Notes: generated from the letters alone by a model not told the origin. 64,000 nucleotides of DNA from an uncultured Planctomycetales bacterium (GCA_964645795.1 CAZYCL010000007.1:26896-90895), one strand, 5' to 3'. Positions 2,707 to 63,825 are shown, counted from the stretch's first letter. A program made the numbers and translations.

Positions 2707-2729
2707 ATACGGGAAAGCCGACTGAATAA

Positions 2730-11244: not shown

Positions 11245-11250
11245 CTCGAT

Positions 11251-15753: not shown

Positions 15754-18539
<2,786 letters not shown>

Positions 18540-18555
18540 ACAACCCGATGCCCCT

Positions 18556-19584
18556 CTAATTAAGAAACCGTTTTAGCTCTTCGGCTACCAGGGCATGCCC
18601 GGCTTCGTTAAAATGAGGGTCCTTGCGGTAAAAAGGGAGCTCTTTATTCTTCTTATAGTAATCCCAGAAGGCGTGGTTGAGGTCGATAAAAACAAGCCCG
18701 TGGTTTTTCGCCCAGCGGCGGCACTTACGGGAAAACTCCTGCGGATCATCGGCCTTATCGTGCATCAGGTTGTAACGCGAAGGCACGGCCATGAGATAGA
18801 ACCTGCCGCCGTAACCCTTGACCTGCCTGGCTATTTTGAGGATATAGGAAGAAGTCGGCTCTGCCATATCCGGGAACTGCTCGCCAAACCCGGCCCCCCG
18901 ATGGCCGTTCTTTGCCCCCAGATGCCCTAACATATACCTTAGCTTCTGATAGGTCATGCCCAGGGCGCGCAGAAAAAAAGAACTGCGGTAGAGCTTAAGC
19001 CAAAAAGCCGCTCTCCTGCCCTCTATGGCAATGAGATCCTTATCCGCATTGAACTTGGCGCTGTAATTATAATAGCTGTCTTCGTAGATGTCGTTAGAGT
19101 ACAGGAGCATAAAGACTTTAACGGGCTTAAGTTCGGCAATGCGGTACTTCCATTGCAGATAATAGATCGACGGGCTGTATGCCCAGGCCGCGTAGTTCTT
19201 CAGACAAAGCCCGGGATGGCGTTTTTGCAAAATGCCGAAAAAACTGCTTTCGTAGGCCACTTCCCTGGGGCAGGTAAAAGAATCCCCGAGAAAAACTACC
19301 AGCCTTTCCCTGGGGCAGGGCCCGCAAGCTCCGCTCTTTGATGGATCAGAGTACAGCCCTTCCTTATCGAAATATATATGGTGGCCGCCGAATTCACCCG
19401 AAGGAGTATAACTGTAAAACAGGTAATCGGCGGGCTGCCGGTGATGAAATACGCGGTCAGGTATAACGGGCGTCTGACCGTAGCCGACGTTAATGGCCCT
19501 CAAAAGAGCTTCTGCGCCGGCAAAGCAAACTGCCAACACAACCATTGAAAGCAGGAGGTTGCAGATAACTAGTCTTTTTCTCAA
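18556..19584 (-). CDS. secreted SGNH/GDSL-type hydrolase family protein (possible O-acetyl-ester hydrolase/transferase)
   Basis: 342 aa with a signal peptide, a GDS block (VVFLGDSFTC) and a C-terminal DxxH block (DPHFNEAGH). The annotated start is TTG; an in-frame ATG lies 13 codons downstream. Confidence 0.55.
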   Translation of the reverse strand: MRKRLVICNLLLSMVVLAVCFAGAEALLRAINVGYGQTPVIPDRVFHHRQPADYLFYSYTPSGEFGGHHIYFDKEGLYSDPSKSGACGPCPRERLVVFLGDSFTCPREVAYESSFFGILQKRHPGLCLKNYAAWAYSPSIYYLQWKYRIAELKPVKVFMLLYSNDIYEDSYYNYSAKFNADKDLIAIEGRRAAFWLKLYRSSFFLRALGMTYQKLRYMLGHLGAKNGHRGAGFGEQFPDMAEPTSSYILKIARQVKGYGGRFYLMAVPSRYNLMHDKADDPQEFSRKCRRWAKNHGLVFIDLNHAFWDYYKKNKELPFYRKDPHFNEAGHALVAEELKRFLN

Positions 19585-19804: not shown

Positions 19805-19879
19805 TCGGGGCGACAGGATTTGAACCTGTGACCTCAACGTCCCGAACGTTGCGCTCTAGCCAAGCTGAGCCACGCCCCG
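19805..19879 (-). tRNA. tRNA-Pro (anticodon CGG)
   Basis: The reverse complement folds as a canonical cloverleaf: 7-bp acceptor stem CGGGGCG/CGCCCCG, a D-arm, anticodon stem CAACG/CGTTG with loop TTCGGGA (anticodon CGG), and T-arm ACAGG-TTCAAAT-CCTGT. No CCA is encoded. Confidence 0.9.
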
Positions 19880-49057: not shown

Positions 49058-49444
49058 TCATAACCTGCCTAATACAGGCCCGCCGCAGTTGCTCTCTTTG
49101 AATATTACGCAATTGTCCCTTTTTTCCGGAAGACAGCTTTTGATCTCCCAGCACTTCTTCTGGGAAAAAAGAAATTTTATGCTTTTTATATTGAACCCCT
49201 TGTCCCTTAACAGCCTTTTGATAAGTAAAAGCAGTTTCTTATCGCAATCGGAGTAATATCGGTCTTTTCCCAGGCGCACCGGCCTGATCAGCCCCTTCTT
49301 CTCCCACAGACGCAGTGTATTTATGGACACCTTGACTGCCTTGGCGATTGCGCCTATCGGATAAAGCGGCACATCTTCGAGGTTCTTAAGCCTGACCGGC
49401 TGTATCATTTTCATTAAATTAGCATATGATAACATGATTGTCAA
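49058..49444 (-). CDS. MerR-family transcriptional regulator with Cys-rich C-terminal tail
   Basis: 128 aa with a MerR HTH (YPIGAIAKAVKVSINTLRLWEKKGLIRPVRL...RYY) and a C-terminal CX5CX7CX9C cluster (CWEIKSC...C...C). The true start may be an internal Met. Confidence 0.7.
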   Translation of the reverse strand: MTIMLSYANLMKMIQPVRLKNLEDVPLYPIGAIAKAVKVSINTLRLWEKKGLIRPVRLGKDRYYSDCDKKLLLLIKRLLRDKGFNIKSIKFLFSQKKCWEIKSCLPEKRDNCVIFKESNCGGPVLGRL

Positions 49445-49508
49445 GTATCTATTAATGATATTGGCAGATTACCGATTTCGGATACAGTGGAGGTCCTCGT
49501 TATGCTGC

Positions 49509-49576
49509 GGGGACGGTTCTCGATCGAGAACCGTCCCCATATCTGGCTCCGATCGAGACGATCGAGAACCGTCCCC
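49509..49576. promoter_or_regulatory. 30-bp perfect palindrome plus a third half-site in the MerR-like/metG divergent intergenic region
   Basis: GGGGACGGTTCTCGATCGAGAACCGTCCCC lies at 49509-49538, and CGATCGAGAACCGTCCCC recurs at 49559-49576, preceded by GATCGAGA. The element sits 65-130 nt upstream of metG. Confidence 0.5.
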
Positions 49577-49640
49577 GGATCCAGACCGCAAGCCAGAAAT
49601 ATGTAGCCAAAAAAGGCTAATTCAGATACAATAATCCATC

Positions 49641-51272
49641 ATGGACGAAAAAAGAAAGATGCTTGTCACCAGCGCCCTGCCCTACGCCAACGGCAGTATC
49701 CATATAGGCCACCTTGTAGAGTATATCCAGACCGATATCTGGGTGCGCTTCCAGAGGCTTATCGGCAATGACTGTTACTATATGTGCGCCGATGATACGC
49801 ACGGCACCCCCGTAATGCTCTCAGCCAAGAAACAGGGGATCTGCGCCGAAGAGCTGATCGAAAGAATGCAACGGGAGCATGTTGCGGATTTTAAGGAGTT
49901 CGATATAAGCTTCGATAATTACTACACCACCAACTCTTCGGAAAACAAAAAGCTGTCGGAGTTCATATACCTGGAGGCCAAAAAGAACGGCGCTATCTAT
50001 GAAAAACAGATATCCCAGCTCTTCTGCGACAACTGCGGAATATTCCTGCCTGACCGCTTTATCCGCGGGACCTGCCCCGAATGCAAGGCCCCCGACCAAT
50101 ACGGCGACTCCTGTGAAAAATGCAGCGCCACATATTCACCTGTTGATCTCATCGGACCTAAATGCGCGGAATGCGCCAATACCCCCAGATCAAAACCTAC
50201 GGTCCACCACTTTTTTAAGCTTTCGGCTTTTTCCGAGAAGTTAAAACAGTGGATCGACGAGGAGGGACACGTCCAGCCTGAGATCCGCAATAAGCTGCAG
50301 GAGTGGTTTAAGCAGGGCTTAAAAGACTGGGACATCAGCCGCGATGAGCCCTACTTCGGCTTCAAGATCCCCGGCACCCAGGATAAGTACTTCTACGTCT
50401 GGATGGACGCGCCTATCGGCTATATCGCCACTACCCAGAACTGGTGCGCCAAATCGGGCCTGGATTTCGAGCGCATATGGAGGGGGAGCGAGTTCGAGAT
50501 CCATCATATAATAGGTAAAGACATTCTCTACTTCCACACCCTCTTCTGGCCGGCGATGCTCATGGCTTCAGGGTTTACGCTGCCGACAGGCATACACATC
50601 CACGGTTTCCTGACCATAAACGGCGAAAAGATGTCCAAGAGCAGGGGCACTTTTATCAGGGCGCGCGAGTACCTCGATAATCTGGACCCCGAGCTGCTGC
50701 GCTATTACTACGCCTCGAAGCTCTCATCTTCGATTGATGATATCGACATCAACTGGGATGATTTCGTATTCAAGGTCAACTCGGACGTCGTGAATAAAGT
50801 GGTCAATATCGCCAGCCGCCTGGGGGCGGTGGTCAACAAGAAGCTCGGCGGCAAGCTTTCGATAATGGATGACGAAGGAGAAATGCTGGTAAGAAAACTG
50901 CTGGCTTCCGGCGCCCAGATCAGAAAATACTATGACGATTTCGAATTTAACCGGGCAATGAAAGAGATCGTCTCGCTGGCGGACCTGACCAACGTCTATA
51001 TCGACGCCAAGGCCCCGTGGGATGCTGCCAAGAAAAATCCGCAGGGGGCCCTAGAGGCCTGCACCTGCGGATTGAATGCCTTACGCGTAATAATGACTTA
51101 CCTGAAGCCAGTACTGCCCAGGATCAGCCGGGGGACAGAAGAATTCCTGAACATCGGGCCTCTAACCTGGGAGGGTCTGGAGAATAAAATTCTTAACTGC
51201 CGCATCAATGCCTACGAGCACCTCGCCAAGAGACTCGACCCAAAACAGGTGGATTTCGCCCGGCCCAAGTAA
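49641..51272 (+). CDS. metG: methionine--tRNA ligase (short form, no C-terminal tRNA-binding domain)
   Basis: 543 aa with HIGH (NGSIHIGH) and KMSKS motifs and a zinc knuckle (CPECKAPDQYGDSCEKC...CAEC). Confidence 0.95.
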   Translation: MDEKRKMLVTSALPYANGSIHIGHLVEYIQTDIWVRFQRLIGNDCYYMCADDTHGTPVMLSAKKQGICAEELIERMQREHVADFKEFDISFDNYYTTNSSENKKLSEFIYLEAKKNGAIYEKQISQLFCDNCGIFLPDRFIRGTCPECKAPDQYGDSCEKCSATYSPVDLIGPKCAECANTPRSKPTVHHFFKLSAFSEKLKQWIDEEGHVQPEIRNKLQEWFKQGLKDWDISRDEPYFGFKIPGTQDKYFYVWMDAPIGYIATTQNWCAKSGLDFERIWRGSEFEIHHIIGKDILYFHTLFWPAMLMASGFTLPTGIHIHGFLTINGEKMSKSRGTFIRAREYLDNLDPELLRYYYASKLSSSIDDIDINWDDFVFKVNSDVVNKVVNIASRLGAVVNKKLGGKLSIMDDEGEMLVRKLLASGAQIRKYYDDFEFNRAMKEIVSLADLTNVYIDAKAPWDAAKKNPQGALEACTCGLNALRVIMTYLKPVLPRISRGTEEFLNIGPLTWEGLENKILNCRINAYEHLAKRLDPKQVDFARPK

Positions 51273-51285: not shown

Positions 51286-52134
51286 TCAAAGCCTTGATTT
51301 CAGCTCAAACTCGTCTATTAAATCCCCGTTTATGTCTATGACCGAAACCAAAACCCTGTCTCCTGAATTATCCAACCGGCAGTAATGAAACTGTTTTATG
51401 AACTTCTGGCTGTAAGGCGAGTTGCGGGTTTTGTCGTAAAGCCGGGAGCCGGCACCTCCTGAAACGATAAAATATATGCCTTTATAAAGACACCTCTCGT
51501 AATTATGGCAGTGGCCGGAAAATACGGCATTGACCCGGTACTGCTCCAGCAAAGGCAGGATCTCATTGCGCCAACCCATTTCGTCTTCATGGTGCACTGA
51601 AGAGCTGGTAAACAGCGGCCGATGAAAGTTAACGATGATAAAGCTGGCAAGCGGCGAGTGCTTCTTGAGCGTATCCCTGAACCAACGGTACTGCTGTGAA
51701 TCCGCAGAAAACGCAGACTCACTGTCCAGGATGATAAAAAGGATATTGTTTTCTTTGACCGCATACCAGCGTTCGTTGTTGGGCAGTTTGAAGTTTTCGA
51801 AGTAAAGCGGGGAGTTGGCCTCGTGATTGCCGAGAGCCGGATAGTATTTGGCTACCCGGCGCATGGCATAGGTGATCTCGTTAAAAACCTCCCATTGGAG
51901 GTGGCTATGCCCGTCTTCAACCTGGTCGCCGAGCTGGAATACCGCTATGGGCCGCTCCCTTACCGCCGCGGCCACGATCTTCTTATGCACCTGCGGAAAA
52001 TGCTGGCTATCGCCCATAACCACTATGGGGCGTAAAAACGCTCCGTGCCAATAGAGCTGCCGCGCCACGAACACGCCGAATAATACGCAGGCCAACGCGA
52101 CAAAAAAACCTATCTTTTTTATCTTTGAGATCAT
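51286..52134 (-). CDS. calcineurin-like metallophosphoesterase
   Basis: 282 aa with an N-terminal TM/signal segment and metallophosphoesterase motifs (GDSQHF..., GNHE, GH). It overlaps lipA by 4 nt and is the last gene of the gcv/lip operon. Confidence 0.75.
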   Translation of the reverse strand: MISKIKKIGFFVALACVLFGVFVARQLYWHGAFLRPIVVMGDSQHFPQVHKKIVAAAVRERPIAVFQLGDQVEDGHSHLQWEVFNEITYAMRRVAKYYPALGNHEANSPLYFENFKLPNNERWYAVKENNILFIILDSESAFSADSQQYRWFRDTLKKHSPLASFIIVNFHRPLFTSSSVHHEDEMGWRNEILPLLEQYRVNAVFSGHCHNYERCLYKGIYFIVSGGAGSRLYDKTRNSPYSQKFIKQFHYCRLDNSGDRVLVSVIDINGDLIDEFELKSRL

Positions 52135-53018
52135 TTACCTGCCCCTGATAAATACCCCTCTGCCATATAGGAGCTGCGCACGTAGGGAGCGCTTTCCACG
52201 TGCCTGAACCCGCGCAGCAGCGCTTGCCTGCGGTAATCGTCAAAGACCTCCGGCCGGACATATTCGCGCACGGGATAATGCGCCCGGCCGGGAGCCAGAT
52301 ACTGACCGATACTCAGGAAGTCGCAATCCACCCTTCTTAAATCATCGAATACACTCAACACTTCATCGCGGCTCTCCCCTAACCCGAGCATTATCCCGGA
52401 TTTGGTAAAGATACGGGCGTCTAAAGATTTCACGGCCCTCAGGAGCCCAAGCGAACCAGCGTAATCCGAATCCCTCCTTACTAAAGGATAAAGCGAGCTT
52501 ACCGTCTCAAGATTATGCGCGATTATCTGTGGGCCGGATGAGCATACGGCCGCAATAGATTCCCTGGAAAGTTTAAAATCCGGTATAAGCACTTCGATCG
52601 TAACTGCGGGGTCCCGCCCTCTTATAAGACGGACGGTTTCAGCAAATATCCCGGCCCCTCCGTCAACAAGATCGTCGCGGGTCACGCTGGTGACCACGAC
52701 ATGACGCAAACCCAGCCTTGAAACCGCCTCGGCAATGCGCCGGGGCTCGTCTTCGTCAGGGGGCAAGGTGGCTCCTTTTTTCACGCCGCAAAAACTGCAG
52801 CTGCGCGTGCAGTACTTACCGAGTATCATAAAGGTTGCGTGACCCGCGCAAAAGCACTCGCCGATATTAGGGCAAAGCGCCTGCTCGCAAACTGTCTCAA
52901 GCCTTAAATCCCTTAAGATGGATTTTACGCCCAAGCAACCTTTCAGCGATATCTTTTTATTAAGCCAAGAGGGCCTGGTCGAGGCGGATCTTTTTGTGGT
53001 TCCAGTCAGGGTTGGCAT
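52131..53018 (-). CDS. lipA: lipoyl synthase LipA (radical SAM)
   Basis: Carries the LipA N-terminal motif (RPSWLNKKI...CEQALCPNIGECF) and the radical SAM motif CTRSCSFC. The longest ORF extends to 53129 and would overlap the upstream gene by 170 nt, so I chose the internal Met at 53018. The start is uncertain. Confidence 0.8.
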   Translation of the reverse strand: MPTLTGTTKRSASTRPSWLNKKISLKGCLGVKSILRDLRLETVCEQALCPNIGECFCAGHATFMILGKYCTRSCSFCGVKKGATLPPDEDEPRRIAEAVSRLGLRHVVVTSVTRDDLVDGGAGIFAETVRLIRGRDPAVTIEVLIPDFKLSRESIAAVCSSGPQIIAHNLETVSSLYPLVRRDSDYAGSLGLLRAVKSLDARIFTKSGIMLGLGESRDEVLSVFDDLRRVDCDFLSIGQYLAPGRAHYPVREYVRPEVFDDYRRQALLRGFRHVESAPYVRSSYMAEGYLSGAGK

Positions 53019-53781
53019 ATTTGGTCTCGATGAGCCGGCGGCAGAGAGATTCTTCTTCGGGAGCGAGGTTTTCCTGGATGAAAGAAACATCAAACTGCTG
53101 GGCAAAGGAGCGGATAAGCACCTCTTCAATAATGTCTTTATCCGGCATGCGCCCCAAAAGCTCGCTAAGGCTTGCGCAACCTAATGAGATATCTTGCGCC
53201 CAACCGCGCAGGTAGCGTCCAACCAGATCCCAATCGATGGAGCAAGGGATTATCCCGTGCTGAAACAGCTCCTGCCTCCTTCTCTTCTGGGCGTTCCCGC
53301 CTATCTTCTTTGAGCCGGCGACGATATCGTATTTTTCCCGAGATGCGCTGCAGATATGGTGAGGGATGCTTTGGCGGATAAAATCTTTGTCCTGCAGCGC
53401 GAAGTACGCCTCAATACCCAGGGACTCGTAGAAACGCAAAAGAAAAGCGCAGATATGCCGGTAAGAAACCAGGGTTTCCTGGGGCTCTCCGATATCCGCC
53501 TTGCGGCAGGCAAAGCTGTAGGTTATCTCGTCGTCATGAAAGAGTATGCCTCCGCCGGTCATCCTGCGCACCACCTCCACCCCGTCTTCCAGGCAGCGCT
53601 GCATATCGGCGACTACCCGCACATCCTGGGAGATACCGGCGCTAAAGGACGGGTTTTCCCAGCGATATACCCTGAACGTAGGGATCCCTTTCTGGCAGCA
53701 GGTGGTAAATATCACCTCATCCAGGGCCATATTATAAGCGGCGCTTGCGGGCTGGGAACGGATCAATCTGAATATTTTCAT
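52960..53781 (-). CDS. lipoate--protein ligase / octanoyltransferase family protein (LplA/LipM-like)
   Basis: BPL/LplA/LipB-family motifs (RRMTGGGILFHDDE; GSKKIGGNAQKRR lysine loop). The start was chosen at MKIFRL (53781) rather than the ORF-track start at 53841, which would overlap gcvPB. Confidence 0.7.
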   Translation of the reverse strand: MKIFRLIRSQPASAAYNMALDEVIFTTCCQKGIPTFRVYRWENPSFSAGISQDVRVVADMQRCLEDGVEVVRRMTGGGILFHDDEITYSFACRKADIGEPQETLVSYRHICAFLLRFYESLGIEAYFALQDKDFIRQSIPHHICSASREKYDIVAGSKKIGGNAQKRRRQELFQHGIIPCSIDWDLVGRYLRGWAQDISLGCASLSELLGRMPDKDIIEEVLIRSFAQQFDVSFIQENLAPEEESLCRRLIETKYANPDWNHKKIRLDQALLA

Positions 53782-53782
53782 G

Positions 53783-55240
53783 TCAACTCTGTTGCGGCTG
53801 CCAGCGCAGGTTCGGCTGGCGGGCAGCCAGCGTCTCATCAAGCCTCGTTACCGGAGCAGACCTCGGCGCCTGCTTGAGTGCCGATGGGTCTTTTTCGGCA
53901 AGCTCGGCGACCTCGATCATCGCCCGGATAAAGAGATCAAGGGTCTCTTTAGACTCGGTCTCCGTAGGCTCGATCATCAGCGCTTCTTTTACGATAAGCG
54001 GAAAATACACGGTCGGGGGATGAAGCCCCTTATCGATGAGGTACTTGGCTATATCGATAGCGTGCACTCCGTGCCTGGCCTGGCGCAAAGCCGAGAAAAC
54101 GCATTCGTGCATGCAGATCTTGTCATAGGCGATATCGTAGTATTGTTTCAGCTTGGCGCGGCAGTAGTTGGCGTTAAGCACCGCGTAGTCGCTTATCTGC
54201 TCCAGCCCCTCCCTGCCCAGATACATGATGTAGGCAAAAGCCTTTAGTATCACCGCGAAGTTGCCGTAAAAAGGCGCGACGTAACCGATGGAGCTCTTGT
54301 AATGATAATCCAAAGCGAAGCTGCCGTCGCAGCGCTTTATGACCCTGGGTATAGGCAGAAACTGCGCCAGCTTCTCGTTTGCGCCGACGGGCCCGGCGCC
54401 GGGGCCGCCGCCGCCGTGAGGGGTGGCGAATGTCTTGTGCAGGTTTATATGCACGACGTCAAAACCGATATCGCCGGGGCGGCATTTGCCCAGCATTGCG
54501 TTGAGATTAGCTCCGTCATAATACATTAGCGCCCCTACCGCATGGGCCATATCGCTGATCTCTTTTATGCGCGGGTTGAATATCCCCAGGGTATCCGGAC
54601 AGGTCAGCATCACCGCGGCGACATCCTCGTTGAGGCATTTTTTGTATTCCTCTAAATCCATATAGCCGTCTTCGGCAGTAGGGATGACGATGACCTGATA
54701 GCCGGCGATCGCGGCACTTGCGGGGTTGGTCCCGTGCGATGAATCGGGGACGATCACGTATTTACGACGGCTGCCCCGGGACTTATGATAAGCGGCTATA
54801 AGCATTACTCCGGTCAGCTCTCCGTGGGCGCCGGCAAGCGGCTGCATGGTAAAGGCGTGCATGCCGGTGATCTCGCACAGAAGCCTGTCCGTTTCATAAA
54901 GCACCTCCAGCGCCCCCTGCGCCAGCATCCCTCCTCCGGACAGCTGCGGCAGGAGAGGGTGCACAGAGGCAAACCCCTCAAGCGAAGCCAGGCGCTCGGT
55001 GAACTTGGGGTTATACTTCATGGTGCAGGAGCCAAGCGGATAAAAGTTGGTATCCACGCAGTAGTTTAACCGGGAAAGATTGGTGTAATGACGCACCACC
55101 TCCAGTTCGCTTACGTCAGCAAGCCTGGGCTGCTGGAGGCGGCAGTATTTGGTATCCAGTGGCGCCGGATCCGGCAGTTGAGAGGCCGCAAACAATGATG
55201 AGCCCATTCCTTCCTTATGTTTATCGAATATCAGCTCCAC
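53783..55240 (-). CDS. gcvPB: glycine dehydrogenase (aminomethyl-transferring) subunit 2, GcvPB
   Basis: 485 aa; a PLP-dependent P-protein C-terminal half with the PLP-lysine region (NLHKTFATPHGGGGPG). Confidence 0.95.
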   Translation of the reverse strand: MELIFDKHKEGMGSSLFAASQLPDPAPLDTKYCRLQQPRLADVSELEVVRHYTNLSRLNYCVDTNFYPLGSCTMKYNPKFTERLASLEGFASVHPLLPQLSGGGMLAQGALEVLYETDRLLCEITGMHAFTMQPLAGAHGELTGVMLIAAYHKSRGSRRKYVIVPDSSHGTNPASAAIAGYQVIVIPTAEDGYMDLEEYKKCLNEDVAAVMLTCPDTLGIFNPRIKEISDMAHAVGALMYYDGANLNAMLGKCRPGDIGFDVVHINLHKTFATPHGGGGPGAGPVGANEKLAQFLPIPRVIKRCDGSFALDYHYKSSIGYVAPFYGNFAVILKAFAYIMYLGREGLEQISDYAVLNANYCRAKLKQYYDIAYDKICMHECVFSALRQARHGVHAIDIAKYLIDKGLHPPTVYFPLIVKEALMIEPTETESKETLDLFIRAMIEVAELAEKDPSALKQAPRSAPVTRLDETLAARQPNLRWQPQQS

Positions 55241-57027
55241 TGGTCCTCCCGATCATTCTCTCCTGCGCTAATGCAACTCTGCGAACACCCGGAACAGAGA
55301 TCCGTATCGGATGCGCGATGCACCTGCAGCTTCCAGCGCATCAGGCGCTCGCTGGTCTTCATCCGTATCCTCCTGGAAAGATGGAGGAGCTTGACCGGCA
55401 AAGGCGTAAGCCTGTTATTATAATAATTGCGGTAAAGCCTCAGATAATAAGCGATCTCTTCTTTATCGGATAAATGAGAGTACAGATAAAAAATAACGTT
55501 GGATTCGTCTTTAACGGCGCCGGATACGGCGTCATTGGCCTTAAGAAAACCGTAGACGCGATTATAGGATTCGTTGATCTGGCATTTTTTCTCTTCCCAG
55601 CTTAACCCCCCTACCTCATCGAATGAGTAACTCCAGGCTTCCACTCCCGTCCTGAATGATTCGGCAAAATTATGGTAGCTTCTGACGTTAGTCAGCCCGT
55701 AATTGGCAGGAGACTTAAGCATAAGGCTGCCTTCCACCAAATAGAATCTGTTGATAAACACGCCGTCGATACTTGAGCGGTTATCGCTTATGAATTTTAC
55801 GGTAGCCCGGACATCCTCCTGGTTCTCGTGAGGCAGCCCCGCAATGATCTCCATCTCCGTCCAGATCCCCGCTTCATTGCACCAGGCCAGCTTGCGCCTG
55901 ACATCTTGAAGATCAACTTTTTTTTCTACGATCTCCAGCAGCCTGGGGCTGGCTGTCTCTAATCCGAATATCAGGCGGCAGGCCCCGGCCTTCCTCATTA
56001 GTTTAAGGGTCTGGGGGTCATCGAGGGTGGTGAAGTTGGCGCAGGCTGACCATATAATATCCAGGCCCGAATCCAATATCCGGTTACAGAAATCCTTGAT
56101 GAAACCGGCGGAAATATTGGTCTGGTTATCCAGGAGAAAGAAATACCGGGTGCCGTATTTGGCGCGAAGCTTTGCCAGGCTTGCTACCGCTTCTTGCGGA
56201 TCAAGATAATAGAGCTTGCTGTCGGCTGACGAAAGACAGAAGGAGCAGCGGTTGGCGCAGCCGTGTATGCTCTGAAAAGGCAGCATCAGGTTGCCGTCTG
56301 ACGGAAAACCTGCTGCGGGTATCCCGGCGAAAAATCCTGCCTCCTGCCAACGGTACCTTTCCAAAGGCAGGCCATCGAAACAGGGTGAGATAAGGACCTG
56401 GTGTTTGTTGGCAGGGTTCTTAAAAACCCTGCCATCCAGCGCGTAGGCCAGGCCCGGTATCTGCTCAAGCCCTACATCCCGTCCGTCTAGCTTTTGCAAC
56501 AACATCTCCAGGGGGATCTCTCCGTAACCCATCACCTGATAATCGATGATACCCAGGCTGTTGTAAAGCTCGAAGTTCTCGTAAATATATCCTCTTTGCA
56601 GCCACTCCCCTCCCGCTATTACGGTCTTACCGCCGCATCTGTGCTTAAAATAGGCGGAGATTAGCAACGACATGACAGACGAACAAAGGTCGTTGCTATA
56701 GACCGAAACCAGCAGTATATCCGTATTCTTGAGGTCCGTTTCTTCAAGATAGCGGCCTACGATATCATCAAGCGCCGGTTCTTGCCGGCCCTTAAGGTAA
56801 CGGACAAGCCGCTCTTGATCAAAAAACAGCCTGATCAGCTTATTCCTTACCCGCGGATAGTAATAATCATTGCCGCGGCAGTAGCCGCTAACATTAAGAT
56901 CGTGCTGGCTAATATCGTAGCCCTTCTTTTTTAGGAAAGCGTAGATGCAGCCCAGGCTCAAAGGCGGCAGCGTCTTATAATTGAGGAAAATATTAAAAGC
57001 GGGTGATTTTATGATCTTGATCTTCAT
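55231..57027 (-). CDS. B12-binding-domain radical SAM protein (class-B-like), function unknown
   Basis: 598 aa with an N-terminal Rossmann-like cobalamin-binding-type domain and a radical SAM core with CxxxCxxC (CANRCSFC). It is embedded between gcvPA and gcvPB, with a 10-nt overlap on gcvPB and 1 nt after the gcvPA stop. Confidence 0.75.
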   Translation of the reverse strand: MKIKIIKSPAFNIFLNYKTLPPLSLGCIYAFLKKKGYDISQHDLNVSGYCRGNDYYYPRVRNKLIRLFFDQERLVRYLKGRQEPALDDIVGRYLEETDLKNTDILLVSVYSNDLCSSVMSLLISAYFKHRCGGKTVIAGGEWLQRGYIYENFELYNSLGIIDYQVMGYGEIPLEMLLQKLDGRDVGLEQIPGLAYALDGRVFKNPANKHQVLISPCFDGLPLERYRWQEAGFFAGIPAAGFPSDGNLMLPFQSIHGCANRCSFCLSSADSKLYYLDPQEAVASLAKLRAKYGTRYFFLLDNQTNISAGFIKDFCNRILDSGLDIIWSACANFTTLDDPQTLKLMRKAGACRLIFGLETASPRLLEIVEKKVDLQDVRRKLAWCNEAGIWTEMEIIAGLPHENQEDVRATVKFISDNRSSIDGVFINRFYLVEGSLMLKSPANYGLTNVRSYHNFAESFRTGVEAWSYSFDEVGGLSWEEKKCQINESYNRVYGFLKANDAVSGAVKDESNVIFYLYSHLSDKEEIAYYLRLYRNYYNNRLTPLPVKLLHLSRRIRMKTSERLMRWKLQVHRASDTDLCSGCSQSCISAGENDREDQWS

Positions 57028-57028
57028 C

Positions 57029-58363
57029 TTAAGTAAGGACCGCCTCCAGGCTGCCGGCCAAGAGCAGTATCTCTTCCCTGGTCCTCTTCTCGGTCACGGC
57101 AACCAACAGGTAATTGTCCATGCCTTTATAGAATCTGCCCAAGGGGAAACCGCAGGCAAAGCCTTTATTGATCATGCGCTGCACCACTTCGTCGGCATTA
57201 CGCGGCAGCAGCACCGTAAATTCGTTGAAAGTGGGCGAACTGCGCTTGACTTGGACGCCCGGTATGCGCGAAATGGCGTCTTTGGCGAACTCGGCCTTGC
57301 TGTAATTAAGCCTCGCCAGCTCTTTCAGGCCGCTCCTGCCGACCAGCGAAGCGTATATCGTAAAACGCAAGGCGCAGAGGGCTTCGTTGGAGCAGATGTT
57401 GGACGTGGCCTTTTCCCTGCGGATATGCTGCTCACGCGTCTGCAGCGTCAGCACAAAACCCCGCCTGCCTTGCGAATCCGCGGTCGCGCCCACGATCCTG
57501 CCCGGCATCTGACGTACCAGCTCCTTTTTTGCGGCCATAAAGCCCAGATATGGCCCGCCGAAGGATAAGGGGATACCGAAGCTCTGACCTTCTCCGGTAG
57601 AGATATCAAACCCCATCTCGCCCGGAGATTTAAGCATGCCCAGCGCCACCGGATAAACGGATTGTATGGCCAGGGCACCGCAGGAGTGGACCTTGGCTAC
57701 CACATCGCTATGGTCATCGACGGCGCCGAAGAAATTAGGGTTCTGCAGGATCACCGCCGCGGTCCTGTCATCTAAATGCTTATAGAGCTGCTCACGGCAG
57801 CTTTGGCCGTGGACAACAGGTATCTCGACGAACTCAATGGAAAGATTGGAAGTGTAGGTGTAGAGCATGGTGCGGTAAAGCAGGCTTATGCCGCTGTCCA
57901 TGATTATCTTATTCCTGCCGGTAAGGCGCACGGCCATCATTGCCGCTTCATACAGGGCGGTGCCGCCGTCATAAAGGGAGGCGTTGGCTACATCCAGCCC
58001 CGTCAACTCGCAAACCGCGGTCTGAAACTCGTATATTGCCTGCAGCCAGCCCTGGGAGCATTCCGGCTGATAAGGGGTGTAGGCGGTGTAAAACTCCGCA
58101 CGGCCGGCCAGCGCATCCACTGCCGCAGGTATAAAATGATCGTAGAAACCGGCCCCGACAAAGCTGATAAGAGAAGAGGCGTTCTTAGCCGCCAGCGACT
58201 TAAGGTGTTCGCTGACCTCAAACTCTGACTTTCCTTTTGGTATATCGAATGAACGCGGGCCGAGCGCGGCGGGGATGTCCCTGAAGAGCTCATCGATAGA
58301 GCCGACACCAATGGCCTTAAGCATCTCTTTTACATCCCGGGGTGTATGGCTGATATAACTCAT
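57029..58363 (-). CDS. gcvPA: glycine dehydrogenase (aminomethyl-transferring) subunit 1, GcvPA
   Basis: P-protein N-terminal half. The start was chosen at MSYISHTPRDVKEMLKAIG (58363); the ORF-track start at 58423 adds 20 atypical residues and overlaps the upstream radical SAM gene. Confidence 0.9.
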   Translation of the reverse strand: MSYISHTPRDVKEMLKAIGVGSIDELFRDIPAALGPRSFDIPKGKSEFEVSEHLKSLAAKNASSLISFVGAGFYDHFIPAAVDALAGRAEFYTAYTPYQPECSQGWLQAIYEFQTAVCELTGLDVANASLYDGGTALYEAAMMAVRLTGRNKIIMDSGISLLYRTMLYTYTSNLSIEFVEIPVVHGQSCREQLYKHLDDRTAAVILQNPNFFGAVDDHSDVVAKVHSCGALAIQSVYPVALGMLKSPGEMGFDISTGEGQSFGIPLSFGGPYLGFMAAKKELVRQMPGRIVGATADSQGRRGFVLTLQTREQHIRREKATSNICSNEALCALRFTIYASLVGRSGLKELARLNYSKAEFAKDAISRIPGVQVKRSSPTFNEFTVLLPRNADEVVQRMINKGFACGFPLGRFYKGMDNYLLVAVTEKRTREEILLLAGSLEAVLT

Positions 58364-58388
58364 TCTATGATTATAACACTCTGGTCTT

Positions 58389-59420
58389 TTAAAGTAAATC
58401 CTTAGGAAGATTGCGGCCGTCAATAAACGAGAGCATGCCGAAATGCCTGATATTTCGCAGATACGACCCCGACTTGTATTCTGGACAGGATGCGCAAGGT
58501 ATCTGGCCAGACGCAGGAGACAGCCTTAAGAGCATGCGCTTGGCATAAATATACTTGCCGCCCCTAAGGCAGGCCGACAGGCCCTCCTCTAAGACATTTC
58601 CAAAATCCCCGTAGATGTTGCGGCAACAGCCAAGAAGCTTGCCGTCCCAGTTGATCTGCGGCGACCTCCAGAGCTGGTGGCAGAAGCCTGCGTTGGGGCT
58701 GTCGGGATAGCCTCTGATCGCCTGCGCGTCATTAAGCGGGGAATACTGCGGGTAGTCGTTAGGCGCGGCCTTAAAAGACATACCCAGCCCTGCGGCCATC
58801 TTCCGGGCAAGCGCAAGCTCTCCCTGGTTGTGCCCGAAAACTACGAACTTCCAGACGAGCTCGGGTTTCTTTTTGTTATATCTCTTCTTAAACCCGTTAA
58901 TAGCCCTGATGTTGGCAACCACCCTTTCCAGGTCCCCGTTCACATGATATATTTTATACACGTCGTTTGTGGCCCCGGATATGGAGACGGTCAGCAGATC
59001 GAAACCGCATCTAACCATGCAATCCAAAACGTCATCTGCGGCGTGATTTAAATTGACCCCGTTATTCGAATACAGGACAACGCCTTTCGAATAGGCGTAT
59101 TCGATGATGTCTTTCAGGCGGGGATTCAAAAAGATCTCGCCCCAGTTCGACAGCTCCACCCTGTTTATCCAGGGATTGGAATCGATTATGTGCCTGAAAT
59201 CATCAAAGCTGATGCTGCCGCGGCCGATGACGCTGTCAAAGAGCCCGTTCTCATCAGAGGCCAGCGCAGGACACCTGGCGCACTTAAGCTGGCAAAGGCT
59301 GGACGCCTCTATCCTTACCGTCCTGCCCAGCGTCCGGTGACCCAGATAATCCAGTAGCCTGCCGGGGACACCCAGGCATCCTTTTACCGATCTGATACCG
59401 CTTTCCGCCTTAGACATCAC
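58389..59420 (-). CDS. radical SAM protein with Cys-rich C-terminal (SPASM/twitch-like) region, function unknown
   Basis: 343 aa with CxxxCxxC near the N-terminus (CQLKCARC) and C-terminal cysteines (CHQLW...GCCRNIYGD...CASCPEY). It is embedded between gcvH and gcvPA and is paralogous in architecture to 62815-63780. Confidence 0.75.
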   Translation of the reverse strand: MMSKAESGIRSVKGCLGVPGRLLDYLGHRTLGRTVRIEASSLCQLKCARCPALASDENGLFDSVIGRGSISFDDFRHIIDSNPWINRVELSNWGEIFLNPRLKDIIEYAYSKGVVLYSNNGVNLNHAADDVLDCMVRCGFDLLTVSISGATNDVYKIYHVNGDLERVVANIRAINGFKKRYNKKKPELVWKFVVFGHNQGELALARKMAAGLGMSFKAAPNDYPQYSPLNDAQAIRGYPDSPNAGFCHQLWRSPQINWDGKLLGCCRNIYGDFGNVLEEGLSACLRGGKYIYAKRMLLRLSPASGQIPCASCPEYKSGSYLRNIRHFGMLSFIDGRNLPKDLL

Positions 59421-59426
59421 CGCGGC

Positions 59427-59816
59427 TCATTTAGACTGGCTTTCCAGATAACGCTCGTAAGAGGCCGCATCCATAAGAAGGGATTTTTCTTTTTCATCGG
59501 AGAACTCCATGACAAAAAAATGCCCCTTATCGTAAGGAGACTGATTTATCAGCTCCGGATGGGCGCCCAAAGATTCGTTGACCCCGCTTACGGTACCGGA
59601 TAACGGCGCGTAGACGTCCGAGGCGGCCTTTACCGACTCGACAGTCGCGCAGGACTTGGAACGCTCTAATTTTGCCCCTTTTTTGGGCAGCTCGACAAAA
59701 GTGATATCCCCAAGAGAGGACTGGGCATGATCGGTGATCCCGACGTAAGCGGTCGAACCCTCGATGCGCGCCCATTCGTGATCTTTGGTATACAAGAGAT
59801 TCTGTGGCACGTTCAT
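59427..59816 (-). CDS. gcvH: glycine cleavage system H protein (lipoyl carrier)
   Basis: 129 aa with a lipoyl-lysine motif context (CATVESVKAASDVYAPLSGTV). It overlaps gcvT by 4 nt. Confidence 0.9.
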   Translation of the reverse strand: MNVPQNLLYTKDHEWARIEGSTAYVGITDHAQSSLGDITFVELPKKGAKLERSKSCATVESVKAASDVYAPLSGTVSGVNESLGAHPELINQSPYDKGHFFVMEFSDEKEKSLLMDAASYERYLESQSK

Positions 59817-60913
59817 TGCTTAACCCCCTTTTTATAAAAAGGCTTCCTGACAACAACAGCCGGTATTTCGCTTGAGCCGTCGGTGACGATGACCCTGTCA
59901 CCTTCGGCAAGCTCAATGCTGACATACCCCATACCTATGCCTGTCGAAAGGCTGGGCGAAAAAGAACCGCTGGTAACCTTACCTATGGACCTGGAGCCTG
60001 AGCGGATATCAAAGCCGTGGCGGGGTGAACGCCTGGACTCCGCCTTAAAAAAGATCATGTGCCGGCCAACGCCCTCCTTTATCTGCTCGACAAGGGAGGT
60101 CTTGCCGATGAAATCCTTGGAAAAATCCAGGAACCTGGCAAGCCCTGCTTCCAACGGGGTATGCTCTCGGTCAATATCCTGACCGTATAAAGGATATCCC
60201 ATCTCCAGCCGCAGGGTATCGCGGCAGCCAAGTCCGGCTGGCTTTACCTGGCCGCCCTCCAGGAGATTATCCCAAAGCCTCAGGCCTGCGGCATTGGAAG
60301 AATAGATCTCAAAACCCATCTCGCCGGTATAACCGGTGCGGCTTATTATGACATCCTCGCCCAGCAATGCAAACTTGCCAAAACCATAGTACTTGAGCTT
60401 TTGCGTATCCGGACCCGCCAACTCCTTTATAACCGACAGGGATAGCGGGCCCTGCAGATCAAGCTTGGCCGTAGCATCTGAAATATTTCGCAAGGCAGCG
60501 CCCGGCTTCAGGTTTTGCCTAAGATGCCCTTCATCCGAAGAGATCGTAGCGGCATTGACTACCAGCATCCAGGATTTCTCCTCTAACCGATAGACCACCA
60601 AATCATCTATCACCGTTGCCTCGGGCGTCAACATAAAACCATAACGGCAGGTGCCCAAAGGCATGCCGACTATATCCTGGGTCACGATGCGATCCAGGCC
60701 GCTTTCTTGGGCATCGGCCTCAAGCATAAACTCTCCCATATGGCAGATATCGAAGACCGAAGCCTTAGTGCGGGTATGCGCGTGCTCCGCAAGAATGCCC
60801 TCATATTGAATAGGCATGAGCCATCCGCCGAAAGGGGCGAGCTTCGCGCCCAAAGACAGGTGTTTTTGGTAAAGGGGGGTTTTACGCAGGGGCTGGCAGT
60901 CCTGGGTTTCCAT
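59813..60913 (-). CDS. gcvT: glycine cleavage system T protein (aminomethyltransferase)
   Basis: 366 aa with the GcvT fold and an N-terminus typical of aminomethyltransferase (TPLYQKHLSLGAKLAPFGGWLMPIQY). Confidence 0.9.
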   Translation of the reverse strand: METQDCQPLRKTPLYQKHLSLGAKLAPFGGWLMPIQYEGILAEHAHTRTKASVFDICHMGEFMLEADAQESGLDRIVTQDIVGMPLGTCRYGFMLTPEATVIDDLVVYRLEEKSWMLVVNAATISSDEGHLRQNLKPGAALRNISDATAKLDLQGPLSLSVIKELAGPDTQKLKYYGFGKFALLGEDVIISRTGYTGEMGFEIYSSNAAGLRLWDNLLEGGQVKPAGLGCRDTLRLEMGYPLYGQDIDREHTPLEAGLARFLDFSKDFIGKTSLVEQIKEGVGRHMIFFKAESRRSPRHGFDIRSGSRSIGKVTSGSFSPSLSTGIGMGYVSIELAEGDRVIVTDGSSEIPAVVVRKPFYKKGVKQ

Positions 60914-60920
60914 ATCTTAG

Positions 60921-61658
60921 TTATTTTTTGCCTATAACTTTATCTTTTACCGGATATTTGCCGCAACAGAACTTTTCGCCTTCCGGACAGTACCCAAGCT
61001 CCAGGCACTTTGCCCCGGCTGCCCAGAAAACCGCAGGAAGCTTGGCTTTGCAGACCTTAAGCATCTCCTCGGCAAGCCTGCGTATCTCCCACTGCGCCCG
61101 CGCGCAACAGCGGTGCTTAAAGAAGTGCAGGAGCTCGCGGCAGTTCATGGTGACGACGATCTTGGTCTCGGCTGCCTGGGGGAGCACGAATCGCGCGTCC
61201 TGCTGAGCGGCCTCGCCGCTCGAACCGTATTTGGCCATAAAACCCAGGAGCCGGGTATAGCCTTCCTGGATTCGGCGCATCAGCCCCTCAAACTCCTTTT
61301 GGGCTTCGGGATCACGTTCGAGCGAGGGAGGGATAATATAATCAAAATCCTTCTCTTTAACGTAGCGCTGGCTCTGCTGGGAGTAAGATGCCAGGCGGTG
61401 CCTGACCAACTGGTGGGTAAGCGCGCGGGATACCCCCTCTATCGCGAAGGTGAACTTTACGTGCTCCAGGGGGCTTTCGTGGCCGGAAGAGACGACATGC
61501 CTTACAAAATCCTCCTGCTTTGCCGGATCGTGCTCAGTTGAAGCCAGGATATCCGCGGCGAACTTTTCGCTGTAGCACTGACGGCAGGCAGCATAGATGA
61601 CCGCGACGGCATTCTCGCTTACTTCCAGCAGTTTTAAATTAAGGCTTACTTTGGGCAT
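60921..61658 (-). CDS. thyX: FAD-dependent thymidylate synthase ThyX
   Basis: 245 aa with the ThyX motif RHRxxSxxxxSxR (VRHRLASYSQQSQRY). It ends 7 nt before the gcvT start. Confidence 0.9.
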   Translation of the reverse strand: MPKVSLNLKLLEVSENAVAVIYAACRQCYSEKFAADILASTEHDPAKQEDFVRHVVSSGHESPLEHVKFTFAIEGVSRALTHQLVRHRLASYSQQSQRYVKEKDFDYIIPPSLERDPEAQKEFEGLMRRIQEGYTRLLGFMAKYGSSGEAAQQDARFVLPQAAETKIVVTMNCRELLHFFKHRCCARAQWEIRRLAEEMLKVCKAKLPAVFWAAGAKCLELGYCPEGEKFCCGKYPVKDKVIGKK

Positions 61659-61667
61659 TTGGACGGA

Positions 61668-62702
61668 TTAACGGACAAATAACAACAATAAGAAATAGGC
61701 CAACATTACTATAAGCCCCAGCGGCAGACCGAACCTGGCCCACTCGGAGCTTTTGATCTTCAGCTTTCCGGCCGCAATGATATTGGGGATATTGCCGGGT
61801 ATAAGCATGCCTCCCGCTATCAATAGGCCGATGACCGCCGACTTTATCTGCACTATCCCCATGCTCGGGCCTATCTCTGCCGCGGCAAGGGTAGCGTTAT
61901 CAAGGACAGCCGAGACGATATTCAGCCAGTAAAGCCCCTGATACGGTATCTTCGATATATAGGCGTCGATGATGGGCTTAAAACCTTTGCCCAGAAAGAT
62001 CAGGGCCATTACGAACAAATAGACCTTGCCTGCCCTGATCACGACCTCCTTGACTTTCTCATCCTTACAGACGCCGATAGTATCTCCTTCCAGGCGCTTG
62101 GCCGGCATAAGCAGGGCCCCAAGCAGGCTGAAGAACGCCACGCCCGGTATAACGAAAATCCAAAGATGGTGGAACAAAAAGAAAAAGCCCGCGTTATAAG
62201 GATCGCATTTGAGCTTGGCGATGACAATGGTCGACAAGGGCTCTCCGATAGGCGTCAGGGCCGCGCCCATGCCGATAGAATAACAGGCCAGCACCACTAT
62301 CTTCAGCTCCAGCTTTCTCTCAAGGATAAGGCAGTTTATTATTCCCACCAGCACCAGCGCCGCAATGATCGCGGTTATGACGCTGGACAACAGCCCCAGG
62401 ACCGAGATCGCCAGAAAAACGAAAAGCTTAAGACCTATTGCATCCGCGAACCTGTTGACGTTATGGGTTATCTGTCTTTGAAAACGGTGAAAGAGAAAAC
62501 CCGCGGCCAGGACCGCCAGGGTTATTTTTACCGGCTCCAGCAGCGCTTCCTCTATCAGATGCAGGCTCCACTGGCTGGTTATAGTGACTGCCGCGCAGCC
62601 CATCACAAAGAGAAAGATCTCCAGCTCCTCTTCGACCTTTTTTATCAGGAAAGGGGCAAGTAATACCGTTGCTAGAATGAGGAATAGACCGGCAAACACC
62701 AT
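61668..62702 (-). CDS. hypothetical polytopic membrane protein (first gene of the thyX-gcv operon)
   Basis: 344 aa with about 9-10 predicted TM helices and no catalytic motifs recognised. It ends 9 nt before thyX. Confidence 0.5.
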   Translation of the reverse strand: MVFAGLFLILATVLLAPFLIKKVEEELEIFLFVMGCAAVTITSQWSLHLIEEALLEPVKITLAVLAAGFLFHRFQRQITHNVNRFADAIGLKLFVFLAISVLGLLSSVITAIIAALVLVGIINCLILERKLELKIVVLACYSIGMGAALTPIGEPLSTIVIAKLKCDPYNAGFFFLFHHLWIFVIPGVAFFSLLGALLMPAKRLEGDTIGVCKDEKVKEVVIRAGKVYLFVMALIFLGKGFKPIIDAYISKIPYQGLYWLNIVSAVLDNATLAAAEIGPSMGIVQIKSAVIGLLIAGGMLIPGNIPNIIAAGKLKIKSSEWARFGLPLGLIVMLAYFLLLLFVR

Positions 62703-62814
62703 ATTTTACCCTCCGTAAAGTTGAACTGCCTGATAAGCCCTGAAAGCGGGACAGCTTGGCGTGGACAAAACATCATTATTATAAGATATTTTTTTATTTT
62801 ATGGTATAAAAATA

Positions 62815-63780
62815 TTAAAATTTTACTGCGGATGCAGGGAAGCTCCCGCGCAGGATGCGCCTGAAAACATCCTTTATATAAATGCCTATAGGCGCATGGT
62901 ATTTTATGCAGTTTTTGCAGAGCGAAAACGAATCCAGAGAAGCCAAAAAGGCTTTTTGCCTGAATGAGACGGCCTTCTCGCCGCTCCAGACCAAAGGCAG
63001 CTCCTGGTCTATGATGCTGCCGATTAGAATACTATGGTTAGCGTCAAAACAACACGGGCTTACGTCGCCGTTAGAAAAGATCACCATCTCCTCAAGCGGC
63101 ATCCCGCAGCGCCTCCTTACGCAAAGCCCGTGTTTTTTCTGGATAACGGAACTCTCGGTTACCTGGCCGGCCCAGTCGTGAGAGACAGCCGAACGGACCG
63201 AAGCGCCTTTTACGCCTCGCAGCTTCTTCTTCCAGAAATCCAGGAAGGCCCCTGAGCCTCTTTTGTTCTTCCTGGTAATAATGCAGCCCACGTGAAACTC
63301 CGGGAGAGCGCTGTTGTTTTCATTTTTCAACTTTATAAGGTAATCGATGTTGGCGTGGGCCCTGTCAAAGCCTGCGCCGCGCTGGTACGCGTAGGCCTGC
63401 TGCTCCAGCGCGTCCGTCCAAATACCCAGCTCCACGTTATAAGGCCTGGGGCTGACCAGCCGCTTGATCATGGCCGGATCAAGTGAGCTAAAGTTAGTGC
63501 TGATCCAGGCCTTGCGCTTGAGCTTTAAATCAATGTAATCAAGGGCGTCGAATATCTTATTATACAAAAAAGGCTCTCCGAAAACATGGAGCCGCAGGGT
63601 AAGCTCGGCTTCGGCGGGGATCCAGACGCGGATCTGATCAATGATCTTTTTGAAGACCGCAAAATCCATATCCAGGGCAGGATAGACAGAGCCCCTGACA
63701 GGGCATATGCGGCATGCATAATTGCAGCGATTGGTCAATTCAATGGAGATCTTTGAGGGATAGGCGCGCGGCATAGGCAA
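62815..63780 (-). CDS. radical SAM protein with Cys-rich C-terminal (SPASM/twitch-like) region, paralogue of 58389-59420
   Basis: 321 aa with CxxxCxxC (CNYACRIC) and C-terminal CC...C...C cysteines. It shares the block order (IE...C3 motif...MDF..FKKII...GEPFL) with the gcv-embedded radical SAM. Confidence 0.75.
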   Translation of the reverse strand: MPMPRAYPSKISIELTNRCNYACRICPVRGSVYPALDMDFAVFKKIIDQIRVWIPAEAELTLRLHVFGEPFLYNKIFDALDYIDLKLKRKAWISTNFSSLDPAMIKRLVSPRPYNVELGIWTDALEQQAYAYQRGAGFDRAHANIDYLIKLKNENNSALPEFHVGCIITRKNKRGSGAFLDFWKKKLRGVKGASVRSAVSHDWAGQVTESSVIQKKHGLCVRRRCGMPLEEMVIFSNGDVSPCCFDANHSILIGSIIDQELPLVWSGEKAVSFRQKAFLASLDSFSLCKNCIKYHAPIGIYIKDVFRRILRGSFPASAVKF

Positions 63781-63825
63781 AGATGCCGGGGGCAGGTCGC
63801 TGCCCCCGGCATAAAACCAGTGTTA

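Follow-up and report, generated by a model that had tools for sequence, protein, structure and literature searches.

The window analyzed here is a 64,000-nucleotide (nt) stretch deposited as DNA of an uncultured Planctomycetales bacterium (GCA_964645795.1, CAZYCL010000007.1:26896-90895). On its minus strand, at 51286-62702, it carries an operon for the glycine cleavage system (GCS) and protein lipoylation in which two radical S-adenosylmethionine (SAM) enzymes, of 343 and 598 amino acids (aa), are lodged between gcvH and gcvPA and between gcvPA and gcvPB, respectively. The gcv/lipoylation operon and both classes within the radical SAM superfamily are known; what is new is their interleaved arrangement, seen in a single population. 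Taking the findings below together, we propose that this is probably a native operon that has acquired two passenger radical SAM genes at its ATGA stop/start junctions, the encoded enzymes performing a glycan-type chemistry. Rather than a new glycine-cleavage function, the arrangement hence most likely represents an insertion specific to one lineage.

The unit comprises 11 consecutive open reading frames (ORFs), at the coordinates that an earlier sequence-only reading had given, in the order DUF1646, thyX, gcvT, gcvH, radical SAM/SPASM-like, gcvPA, class-B-like radical SAM, gcvPB, LplA/LipM-like, lipA, and metallophosphoesterase (Table 1), with successive intergenic distances of 9, 7, -4, 9, 25, 1, -10, 1, -59, and -4 nt. 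Gene starts were fixed by orthologue alignment and independent gene calls, and identities by Pfam and NCBIfam profile searches, with scores given against the curated cut-offs. These bear out the gene identifications of the sequence-only reading and its description of eleven co-directional genes with overlaps or gaps under 30 nt (here, -59 to +25 nt). They also bear out the presence of two uncharacterized radical SAM genes, one SPASM-like and one of B12-type architecture, at the H/PA and PA/PB junctions, and the 10-nt overlap of the second with gcvPB. Its claim that the first of these genes overlaps gcvPA proved to be an artefact of taking the longest ORF (from TTG 58423); orthologue alignment (MSYISHTP versus MSYIPHT) places the true gcvPA start at ATG 58363, leaving a 25-nt gap after the 343-aa gene. 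The LplA-like protein falls far under the cut-off of the full-length LplA equivalog models (TIGR00545, 66.6 bits against 280) and is predicted to be either a ligase or a LipM-like octanoyltransferase. Seven different sequencing runs yielded operon-spanning contigs that match the window at 100% identity across the junctions, and the arrangement is therefore no assembly chimera.

Table 1. Features of the gcv/lipoylation locus, in transcriptional order (bit scores are followed by the curated cut-off where given)
Feature	Coordinates	Strand	Basis
Upstream radical SAM/SPASM gene, 321 aa (319 aa as called)	62815..63774	-	SPASM, 48.6 bits; CNYACRIC motif
AT-rich gap of 112 nt separating the 321-aa gene from the operon	62703..62814	-	GGAGGG just before the DUF1646 ATG
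DUF1646 membrane protein, first gene	61668..62702	-	PF07854, 391.7 bits, above cut-off
thyX, FAD-dependent thymidylate synthase	60921..61658	-	TIGR02170, 196 bits (87.9)
gcvT, aminomethyltransferase	59813..60913	-	TIGR00528, 315 bits (235.85)
gcvH	59427..59816	-	TIGR00527, 152.7 bits (115.85)
ATGAG remnant of the ancestral gcvH-stop/gcvPA-start overlap	59426..59430	-	Comparison with L175-L177
Inserted radical SAM/SPASM-like (twitch-like) gene, 342-343 aa	58389..59417	-	SPASM PF13186, 25.7 bits (21.5)
Promoter-like TTTACT-17-(TG)TATAAT	58370..58398	-	10/12 matches plus extended -10; ends 7 nt before the gcvPA ATG
gcvPA, native Omnitrophota gene	57029..58363	-	NF001696, 610 bits (364)
Inserted class-B-type radical SAM gene, 598 aa	55231..57027	-	Radical_SAM PF04055, 74.4 bits
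gcvPB, GTG start	53783..55240	-	NF003346, 701 bits (441)
LplA/LipM-family ligase or transferase, catalytic domain only	52960..53781	-	PF21948, 111.5 bits (27)
lipA, lipoyl synthase	52131..53018	-	TIGR00510, 323.5 bits (310.25); PF04055, 60.7 bits
Metallophosphoesterase, last gene, 4-nt overlap with lipA	51286..52134	-	PF00149, 49 bits

Evidence for insertion comes from the relatives of the host. All named entries among the 120 best homologues of GcvPA (78-83% identity) belong to Candidatus Omnitrophota/Omnitrophica, and judged by these GcvPA matches the organism is a member of Candidatus Omnitrophota. The comparison covered five relatives (L175 to L179) whose GcvPA shares 81-83% identity with that of the window. 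In the four that extend far enough (L175, L176, L177, and L179) the genes run gcvT-gcvH-gcvPA-gcvPB-lplA-lipA, with 4-nt ATGA overlaps and no insert at both the H/PA and the PA/PB junctions; protein identity between these operons and that of the window is 58-83%. The closest, L178 (83%), likewise has the H/PA overlap, so that this junction is free of a radical SAM insert in 5/5 relatives, and its gcvPB lies 58 nt after gcvPA with no gene between them. The position of lplA after gcvPB and an lplA/lipA overlap of about 20-59 nt are common to the window and its relatives, and in L176 thyX directly precedes gcvT, as it does in the window. Since the window gcv, lplA, and lipA products are 55-83% identical to their Omnitrophota counterparts (67-83% for the GCS genes), these genes are native. 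Against this conserved operon of the same genes in the same order, the window adds the two radical SAM genes, DUF1646 upstream, and the metallophosphoesterase downstream of lipA. The absence of the inserts from the relatives' conserved operon marks the two radical SAM genes as lineage-specific insertions. The metallophosphoesterase, which was not found after lipA in the relatives, is by the same comparison a lineage-specific addition.

Two of the relatives carry further genes of interest beside the operon. In L179, a glycan cluster abuts gcvT (a B12-radical SAM gene, a GDSL gene, a radical SAM-SPASM-glycosyltransferase fusion, GT1, GT2, and Wzy), and a radical SAM-GT2-DUF1646 run (16782-19301), whose DUF1646 product is 72% identical to that of the window, lies 5 kb downstream of lipA. 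The radical SAM proteins in question are not orthologues of those in the window, and these clusters indicate that genes of the glycan/radical SAM type are close neighbors of the gcv operon in this clade. In L175, hydABC-like genes and hydG are situated just downstream of gcv-lipA-lpd.

The junctions themselves suggest how the genes entered. In the relatives, the H/PA junction reads ...aaATGAgctat..., with the TGA stop of gcvH overlapping the ATG of gcvPA. Compared with L175-L177, the window gcvH ends ...tctaaATGAgccgcggtgATG followed by the 343-aa gene, and gcvPA begins ...atagaATGAgttat. An ATGAG is thus retained at the end of gcvH and recurs at the present gcvPA start (58359-58363), so that copies flank the 343-aa insert on both sides. 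This duplicated ATGAG marks the insertion; it is the minimal duplication needed for placing a gene between two overlapping genes while leaving both intact. At the PA/PB junction, the ancestral gcvPB start was ATGAAg/a; ATGAAG is now the start of the 598-aa gene, which follows a new gcvPA stop codon, TAA, after 1 nt. In turn, gcvPB, ancestrally beginning ATGAAGCTTATTTTT, now begins GTGGAGCTGATATTC from GTG 55240 (VELIFDKHK versus MKLIFEKHK), and a GGGAGGA stands ahead of this GTGGAG start, within the terminal part of the overlapping 598-aa gene (its 3' end). Beginning MKIKI, the 598-aa protein lacks two residues of the family consensus MxxKIKI at its N terminus; its C-terminal ~60 residues are unconserved, and the model has low confidence over the final 23, all of which is consistent with ends remodeled at insertion.

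A mobile element or cassette as the agent of insertion was considered and rejected. No direct or inverted repeats longer than the 5-6 nt ATGAG were found at the insert edges, where repeats are at chance level only; no recombinase (integrase or transposase) was seen among the profile-searched operon neighbors; and the GC content at third codon positions (GC3) of the inserts, 0.665 and 0.616, does not deviate from the 0.58-0.69 of the native genes.

The 343-aa protein displays the radical SAM motif CxxxCxxC as CQLKCARC and retains all 40 invariant residues of its family, among them the cysteines C247, C265, C266, C309, and C312, which form the motif CX12GX4C(C)...CX2C. The full seven-cysteine SPASM motif is not present in this protein; with five conserved auxiliary cysteines, its domain corresponds to only the first part of that motif and is a truncated SPASM or twitch-like domain that probably holds one auxiliary cluster. 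For both inserts, AlphaFold2 models were searched with Foldseek. The model of the 343-aa protein (predicted local distance difference test [pLDDT] score of 87.3) best matches BlsE, SkfB, DesII, SuiB, EpeE, viperin, and BtrN (E = 2e-9 to 1e-5, template modeling [TM] score of about 0.45-0.58, 10-15% identity), with CteB among the further matches. The protein shares with these SPASM/twitch enzymes the radical SAM core and the C-terminal Cys-rich auxiliary domain, and the CxxxCxxC motif, this domain, and the matching folds together place it among them. BlsE, DesII, BtrN, and viperin are radical SAM enzymes of sugars or nucleotides, and SkfB, SuiB, and EpeE are peptide maturases. No named radical SAM/SPASM equivalog cut-off is reached by the 343-aa protein, the best being TIGR04317 (66.1 bits against 380).

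The 598-aa protein likewise contains CxxxCxxC and keeps every invariant residue of its family alignment. Its best NCBIfam matches are all families of B12-binding radical SAM enzymes, including ApyD and a family of C-methyltransferases of ribosomally synthesized and post-translationally modified peptides (RiPPs), and all lie far under the cut-offs (e.g., 77 bits against 750). A sequence search against solved structures returned only weak superfamily matches, and a profile comparison matched AprD4 at 1e-12. The AlphaFold2 model (pLDDT 87.4) combines a Rossmann N-terminal domain with a radical SAM barrel and matches TsrM, OxsB, MgmA, CysS, TokK, and AprD4 over 500-600 columns (Foldseek E = 1e-18 to 1e-14, TM 0.5-0.57, 13-18% identity). 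The model thereby confirms a class-B architecture for the 598-aa protein, which has the Rossmann-like domain, the barrel, and CxxxCxxC in common with these class-B enzymes; unlike them, it shows no detected Pfam B12-binding domain and reaches no equivalog. Its use of cobalamin is putative. AprD4 is B12 free, so a class-B-like fold can exist without the cofactor. Of the SPASM and B12-binding profiles that the sequence-only reading proposed for classification, SPASM matched the 343-aa protein. PF02310 (B12-binding) was not detected in the 598-aa protein of the window, being listed for one homologue fused to TPR (P0144), and neither embedded protein reaches any NCBIfam equivalog cut-off.

To our knowledge, neither family has a characterized member. 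That of the 343-aa protein comprises more than 1,300 clusters at E <= 1e-3, with a flat identity of 42-51%, in bacteria and archaea; in GTDB species representatives it is found in Nitrospirota, Omnitrophota, Myxococcota, Bacteroidota, Cyanobacteria, Proteobacteria, DPANN archaea, and others. Among 127 immediate neighbors, GT2 is the commonest (11/127), with GT1, Polysacc_synt, methyltransferases, and radical SAM genes at 3 each. Fusions also occur, to a GT4 domain in P0004 and to an FkbM methyltransferase domain in P0012.

The family of the 598-aa protein is smaller, with a best homologue at 49%, and includes TPR-fused members from Omnitrophica. Homologues at 43-47% identity sit among genes for GT1, GT2, GT4, Bac_transf, the Polysacc_synt flippase, DegT, NeuB, and GDSL/ALGX. 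One of them (P0124) lies between genes of the GT4 family (MraY/WecA type) and the Kdo-transferase type, in a cluster with GT1/GT2, DegT, PIG-L, WbqC, and NeuB. Another (P0126) stands at the end of a run of five radical SAM and radical SAM/SPASM genes, with a Polysacc_synt flippase, three glycosyltransferases, and an STT3-type oligosaccharyltransferase. A third (P0122) follows, in order, B12-radical SAM, radical SAM/SPASM, GT4/GT1, radical SAM/SPASM, GT2, GDSL/ALGX, GT1, and Bac_transf genes, and a fourth (P0123) has beside it a second copy of the family, one radical SAM gene, and one GT1 gene. Around 17 further members, the 68 genes up to three positions away include 31 with Radical_SAM, 19 with SPASM, 5 with GT2, 4 with GDSL, and 4 with TPR domains. 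The conserved company of the two families elsewhere thus appears, from gene neighborhoods, to be glycan/polysaccharide biosynthesis genes and radical SAM/SPASM arrays. The multi-radical SAM/glycosyltransferase clusters (e.g., L014 and L180) resemble the window in holding 598-family genes (43-47%) beside radical SAM/SPASM genes. In such clusters, the radical SAM genes are contiguous with glycosyltransferases, a flippase, and an initiating transferase, whereas those of the window are scattered among the gcv genes with no glycosyltransferase nearby.

Two other contexts of the 598-aa family deserve mention. Its closest homologue (P0121, 49%; L008:6057-10363) lies between hydG (TIGR03955, 450 bits) and hydE (TIGR03956, 332 bits), beside a flippase gene, and is a second case of the family inside a cofactor-maturation run, here for [FeFe]-hydrogenase; a 344-aa radical SAM protein next to it, considered as a possible partner from the 343-aa family, is HydE and was rejected. 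A 5-kb contig (L181:1-2263) holds two tandem copies, the upstream partial one being 51% identical to residues 335-525 of the window protein.

If the inserted enzymes served the GCS, one would look for gcv genes around their homologues, and the sequence-only reading had itself named a lack of such linkage as refuting that role. All operon proteins of the window were compared by tblastn with homologue loci having up to 10 kb of flank: 80 GTDB-genome loci for the 343-aa family and 87 for the 598-aa family (80 metagenome and 7 context loci). Outside the population of the window itself, gcvT, gcvH, gcvPA, and gcvPB occur in 0/80 and 0/87 of these loci, and lplA and thyX in none of the same 167; the sole match to an operon gene is one lipA in L022, ~3 kb away from a gene of the 343-aa family. 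On this count, the idea of a GCS role fails the test set for it beforehand. A literature search for gcvH with radical SAM and SPASM returned nothing, and those papers on Omnitrophota radical SAM enzymes or glycine cleavage that were checked contained nothing of relevance to this locus.

We hence reconstruct the history of the locus as follows. The ancestral state would have been a (thyX-)gcvT-gcvH-gcvPA-gcvPB-lplA-lipA operon for glycine cleavage and H-protein lipoylation, into which two genes would have been gained in one lineage, at the ATGA stop/start overlaps of H/PA and PA/PB. As passengers, they would use the transcription of the operon, with the 598-aa gene also drawing on the translational coupling that the former gcvPB start provided. 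Their products, which are intact radical SAM enzymes and appear to evolve under purifying selection, may have as their substrate a sugar, a sugar nucleotide, or a glycan/lipid-linked compound instead of the GCS. Both the substrate class and the passenger status are drawn from family context and comparison with relatives. The fallback offered by the sequence-only reading, an unrelated but co-regulated function, is compatible with these data.

Several points weigh against this reconstruction. Neither GC3 nor the boundary repeats give an independent signature of recent horizontal transfer, and no donor was traced, the best homologues of the inserts being only 49-51% identical. The neighborhoods of the 343-aa family are very heterogeneous, with 144 Pfam families among the 127 neighbors, and because of this the glycan assignment of that family is weak; its fold matches, moreover, include peptide-modifying radical SAM enzymes. 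Co-transcription of the inserts with the operon is predicted from spacing. Finally, neutral insertion is unlikely to hit the interior of one tightly coupled, conserved operon twice, and selection could have favored expression of the inserts together with the GCS, LipA, or one-carbon (C1) metabolism.

This last point leads to the alternative that the radical SAM genes were kept for a shared economy of C1 units, SAM, or Fe-S clusters without acting directly on the GCS, for instance in a SAM-consuming, possibly cobalamin-dependent methylation drawing on the supply of the operon. The GCS and ThyX both handle 5,10-methylene-tetrahydrofolate, and LipA is an Fe-S/SAM enzyme; regulation responding jointly to C1, SAM, or Fe-S status would be of use here. 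That thyX, gcv, and lipA were already grouped in the window and one related genome speaks for such an adaptive co-regulation, as do the two interior insertions, which suggest selection, and the workable translation signals kept or created at the junctions (the 598-aa start 1 nt after gcvPA and the new GGGAGGA-GTG for gcvPB). The 598-aa enzyme also shares its class-B fold with the methyltransferases TsrM, TokK, CysS, and MgmA; AprD4, class-B-like and non-methylating, fits equally well, however, and PF02310 was not detected. As the linkage recurs in no other genome examined, any advantage is not general, and we regard adaptive co-regulation as unlikely, though deserving of some weight.

The sequence-only reading had proposed a bolder role, in which the embedded enzymes modify GcvH or its lipoyl/aminomethyl arm or supply an alternative cofactor; the P-protein would be a further candidate target. 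In favor of such a role, the genes are wedged between gcvH, gcvPA, and gcvPB within the range of translational coupling, and SPASM and class-B radical SAM enzymes are often maturases of proteins or peptides (as in the NCBIfam families and the fold matches to SkfB, SuiB, EpeE, and MgmA). It would also resemble that of LipS1/LipS2, alternative radical SAM lipoyl synthases acting on the H-protein/lipoyl system. However, the LipS1/LipS2 models (NF053743 or related) and the LipA models match neither the two inserts nor the 321-aa protein at thresholds of E <= 1e-3 or 1e-2, and the operon has a canonical LipA; a lipoate-related identity for them was accordingly rejected. Nor does GcvH give any hint of a changed substrate, as far as its sequence tells: the canonical lipoyl-lysine motif VESVKAAS is present, and K63 and its surroundings are invariant across six sequences (window and five relatives). 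With its gcv partners missing from all 167 homologue loci, with the relatives' GCS genes, 67-83% identical, doing without either insert, and with both families at home in glycan or multi-radical SAM clusters, an action on the GCS is improbable and the claim stands unsupported. A stronger form, in which the pair was recruited to the GCS/lipoylation for a new GcvH or P-protein modification or an altered lipoyl cofactor, its position being selected for stoichiometric co-translation, would be a shade more improbable still.

RiPP-type maturation by the SPASM and B12-type pair, with a precursor gene located elsewhere, is suggested by the ApyD/RiPP C-methyltransferase matches of the 598-aa protein and the SkfB, SuiB, EpeE, and CteB folds of the 343-aa protein. 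The scores of these family matches, noted above, lie far below cut-off, the operon, whose gaps are all of 25 nt or less, leaves no room for a precursor ORF, and around the homologues glycosyltransferases and flippases predominate, without precursors, proteases, or exporters, making this a very unlikely explanation. As for a chimeric assembly, rejected on the seven identical contigs, or decaying pseudogenes, only the oddity of the arrangement favors either, and with intact ORFs, every family-invariant residue kept, and confident models (pLDDT of about 87) such artefacts have practically no probability.

If the insertion of passenger genes is accepted, the locus offers a clean, datable example of gene entry into a tightly coupled operon via a duplicated ATGA overlap, with the flanking genes surviving. 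It also draws attention to two sizeable radical SAM families, of which the 598-aa one is typical of multi-radical SAM glycan clusters. An action on the GCS would, if true, mean that a universally conserved C1 enzyme complex undergoes a new modification, but present evidence points to no new glycine-cleavage or lipoate biochemistry.

With regard to expression, the gaps of at most 25 nt and the lack of a convincing minus-strand terminator, by pattern scan, in any intergenic gap of the operon suggest that the 11 genes are co-transcribed, and the 112-nt gap ahead of DUF1646 is likely to contain the promoter of the unit. The promoter-like site before gcvPA, whose ATG lacks a Shine-Dalgarno sequence, might speculatively be a putative internal promoter giving a nearly leaderless gcvPA message, in a scan that overall was at chance level (13 sites found against 10.1 expected). 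An Rfam scan of the 64-kb window detected no glycine riboswitch or other element at the locus, the only match at gathering level being a tRNA gene at 19805-19879 (minus strand).

The third radical SAM gene noted by the sequence-only reading does lie upstream; it is separated from the operon by the 112-nt gap, and its presumed close paralogy to the 343-aa gene was rejected, the similarity (27% identity over 86 residues, BLASTP E = 6e-4) being at the superfamily level only. Distant relatives of this 321-aa protein adjoin 598-family genes in L014 and L095. A radical SAM-DUF1646 adjacency recurs: in the window (61668-63774) DUF1646 directly follows the 321-aa gene, a 344-aa DUF1646 gene likewise directly follows that of P0002 (at 51% the closest homologue of the 343-aa protein), and L179 shows the adjacency again. 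Beyond the upper end of the window, ~4 kb upstream of the 321-aa gene, the genome encodes a 567-aa FkbM-type methyltransferase (PF05050; L001:97-1800); this is the domain that P0012, of the 343-aa family, carries as a fusion. A GC-rich hairpin (gccgggggcag...ctgcccccggc; 63781-63806, minus strand), terminator-like but poor in its T-tail, separates the stop codon of an LTXXQ/Metal_resist gene from the 321-aa gene start; the former gene is the last of a run of extracytoplasmic-function (ECF) sigma/anti-sigma genes seen in L001.

At the other end, a weak terminator-like hairpin (51297-51275) overlaps the metallophosphoesterase stop, and downstream of the operon are metG, on the plus strand and convergent with the operon end, and a gene for a MerR/HspR-like regulator (49058-51272). 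Farther away, a dcw cluster (mraW, a gene for an ftsI-type penicillin-binding protein, murE, murF, mraY, murD, and ftsW) occupies 344-9645 on the minus strand, which indicates that the window is core chromosome, and ribF and a gene for a DHH/DHHA1 protein are found at 10312-12222.

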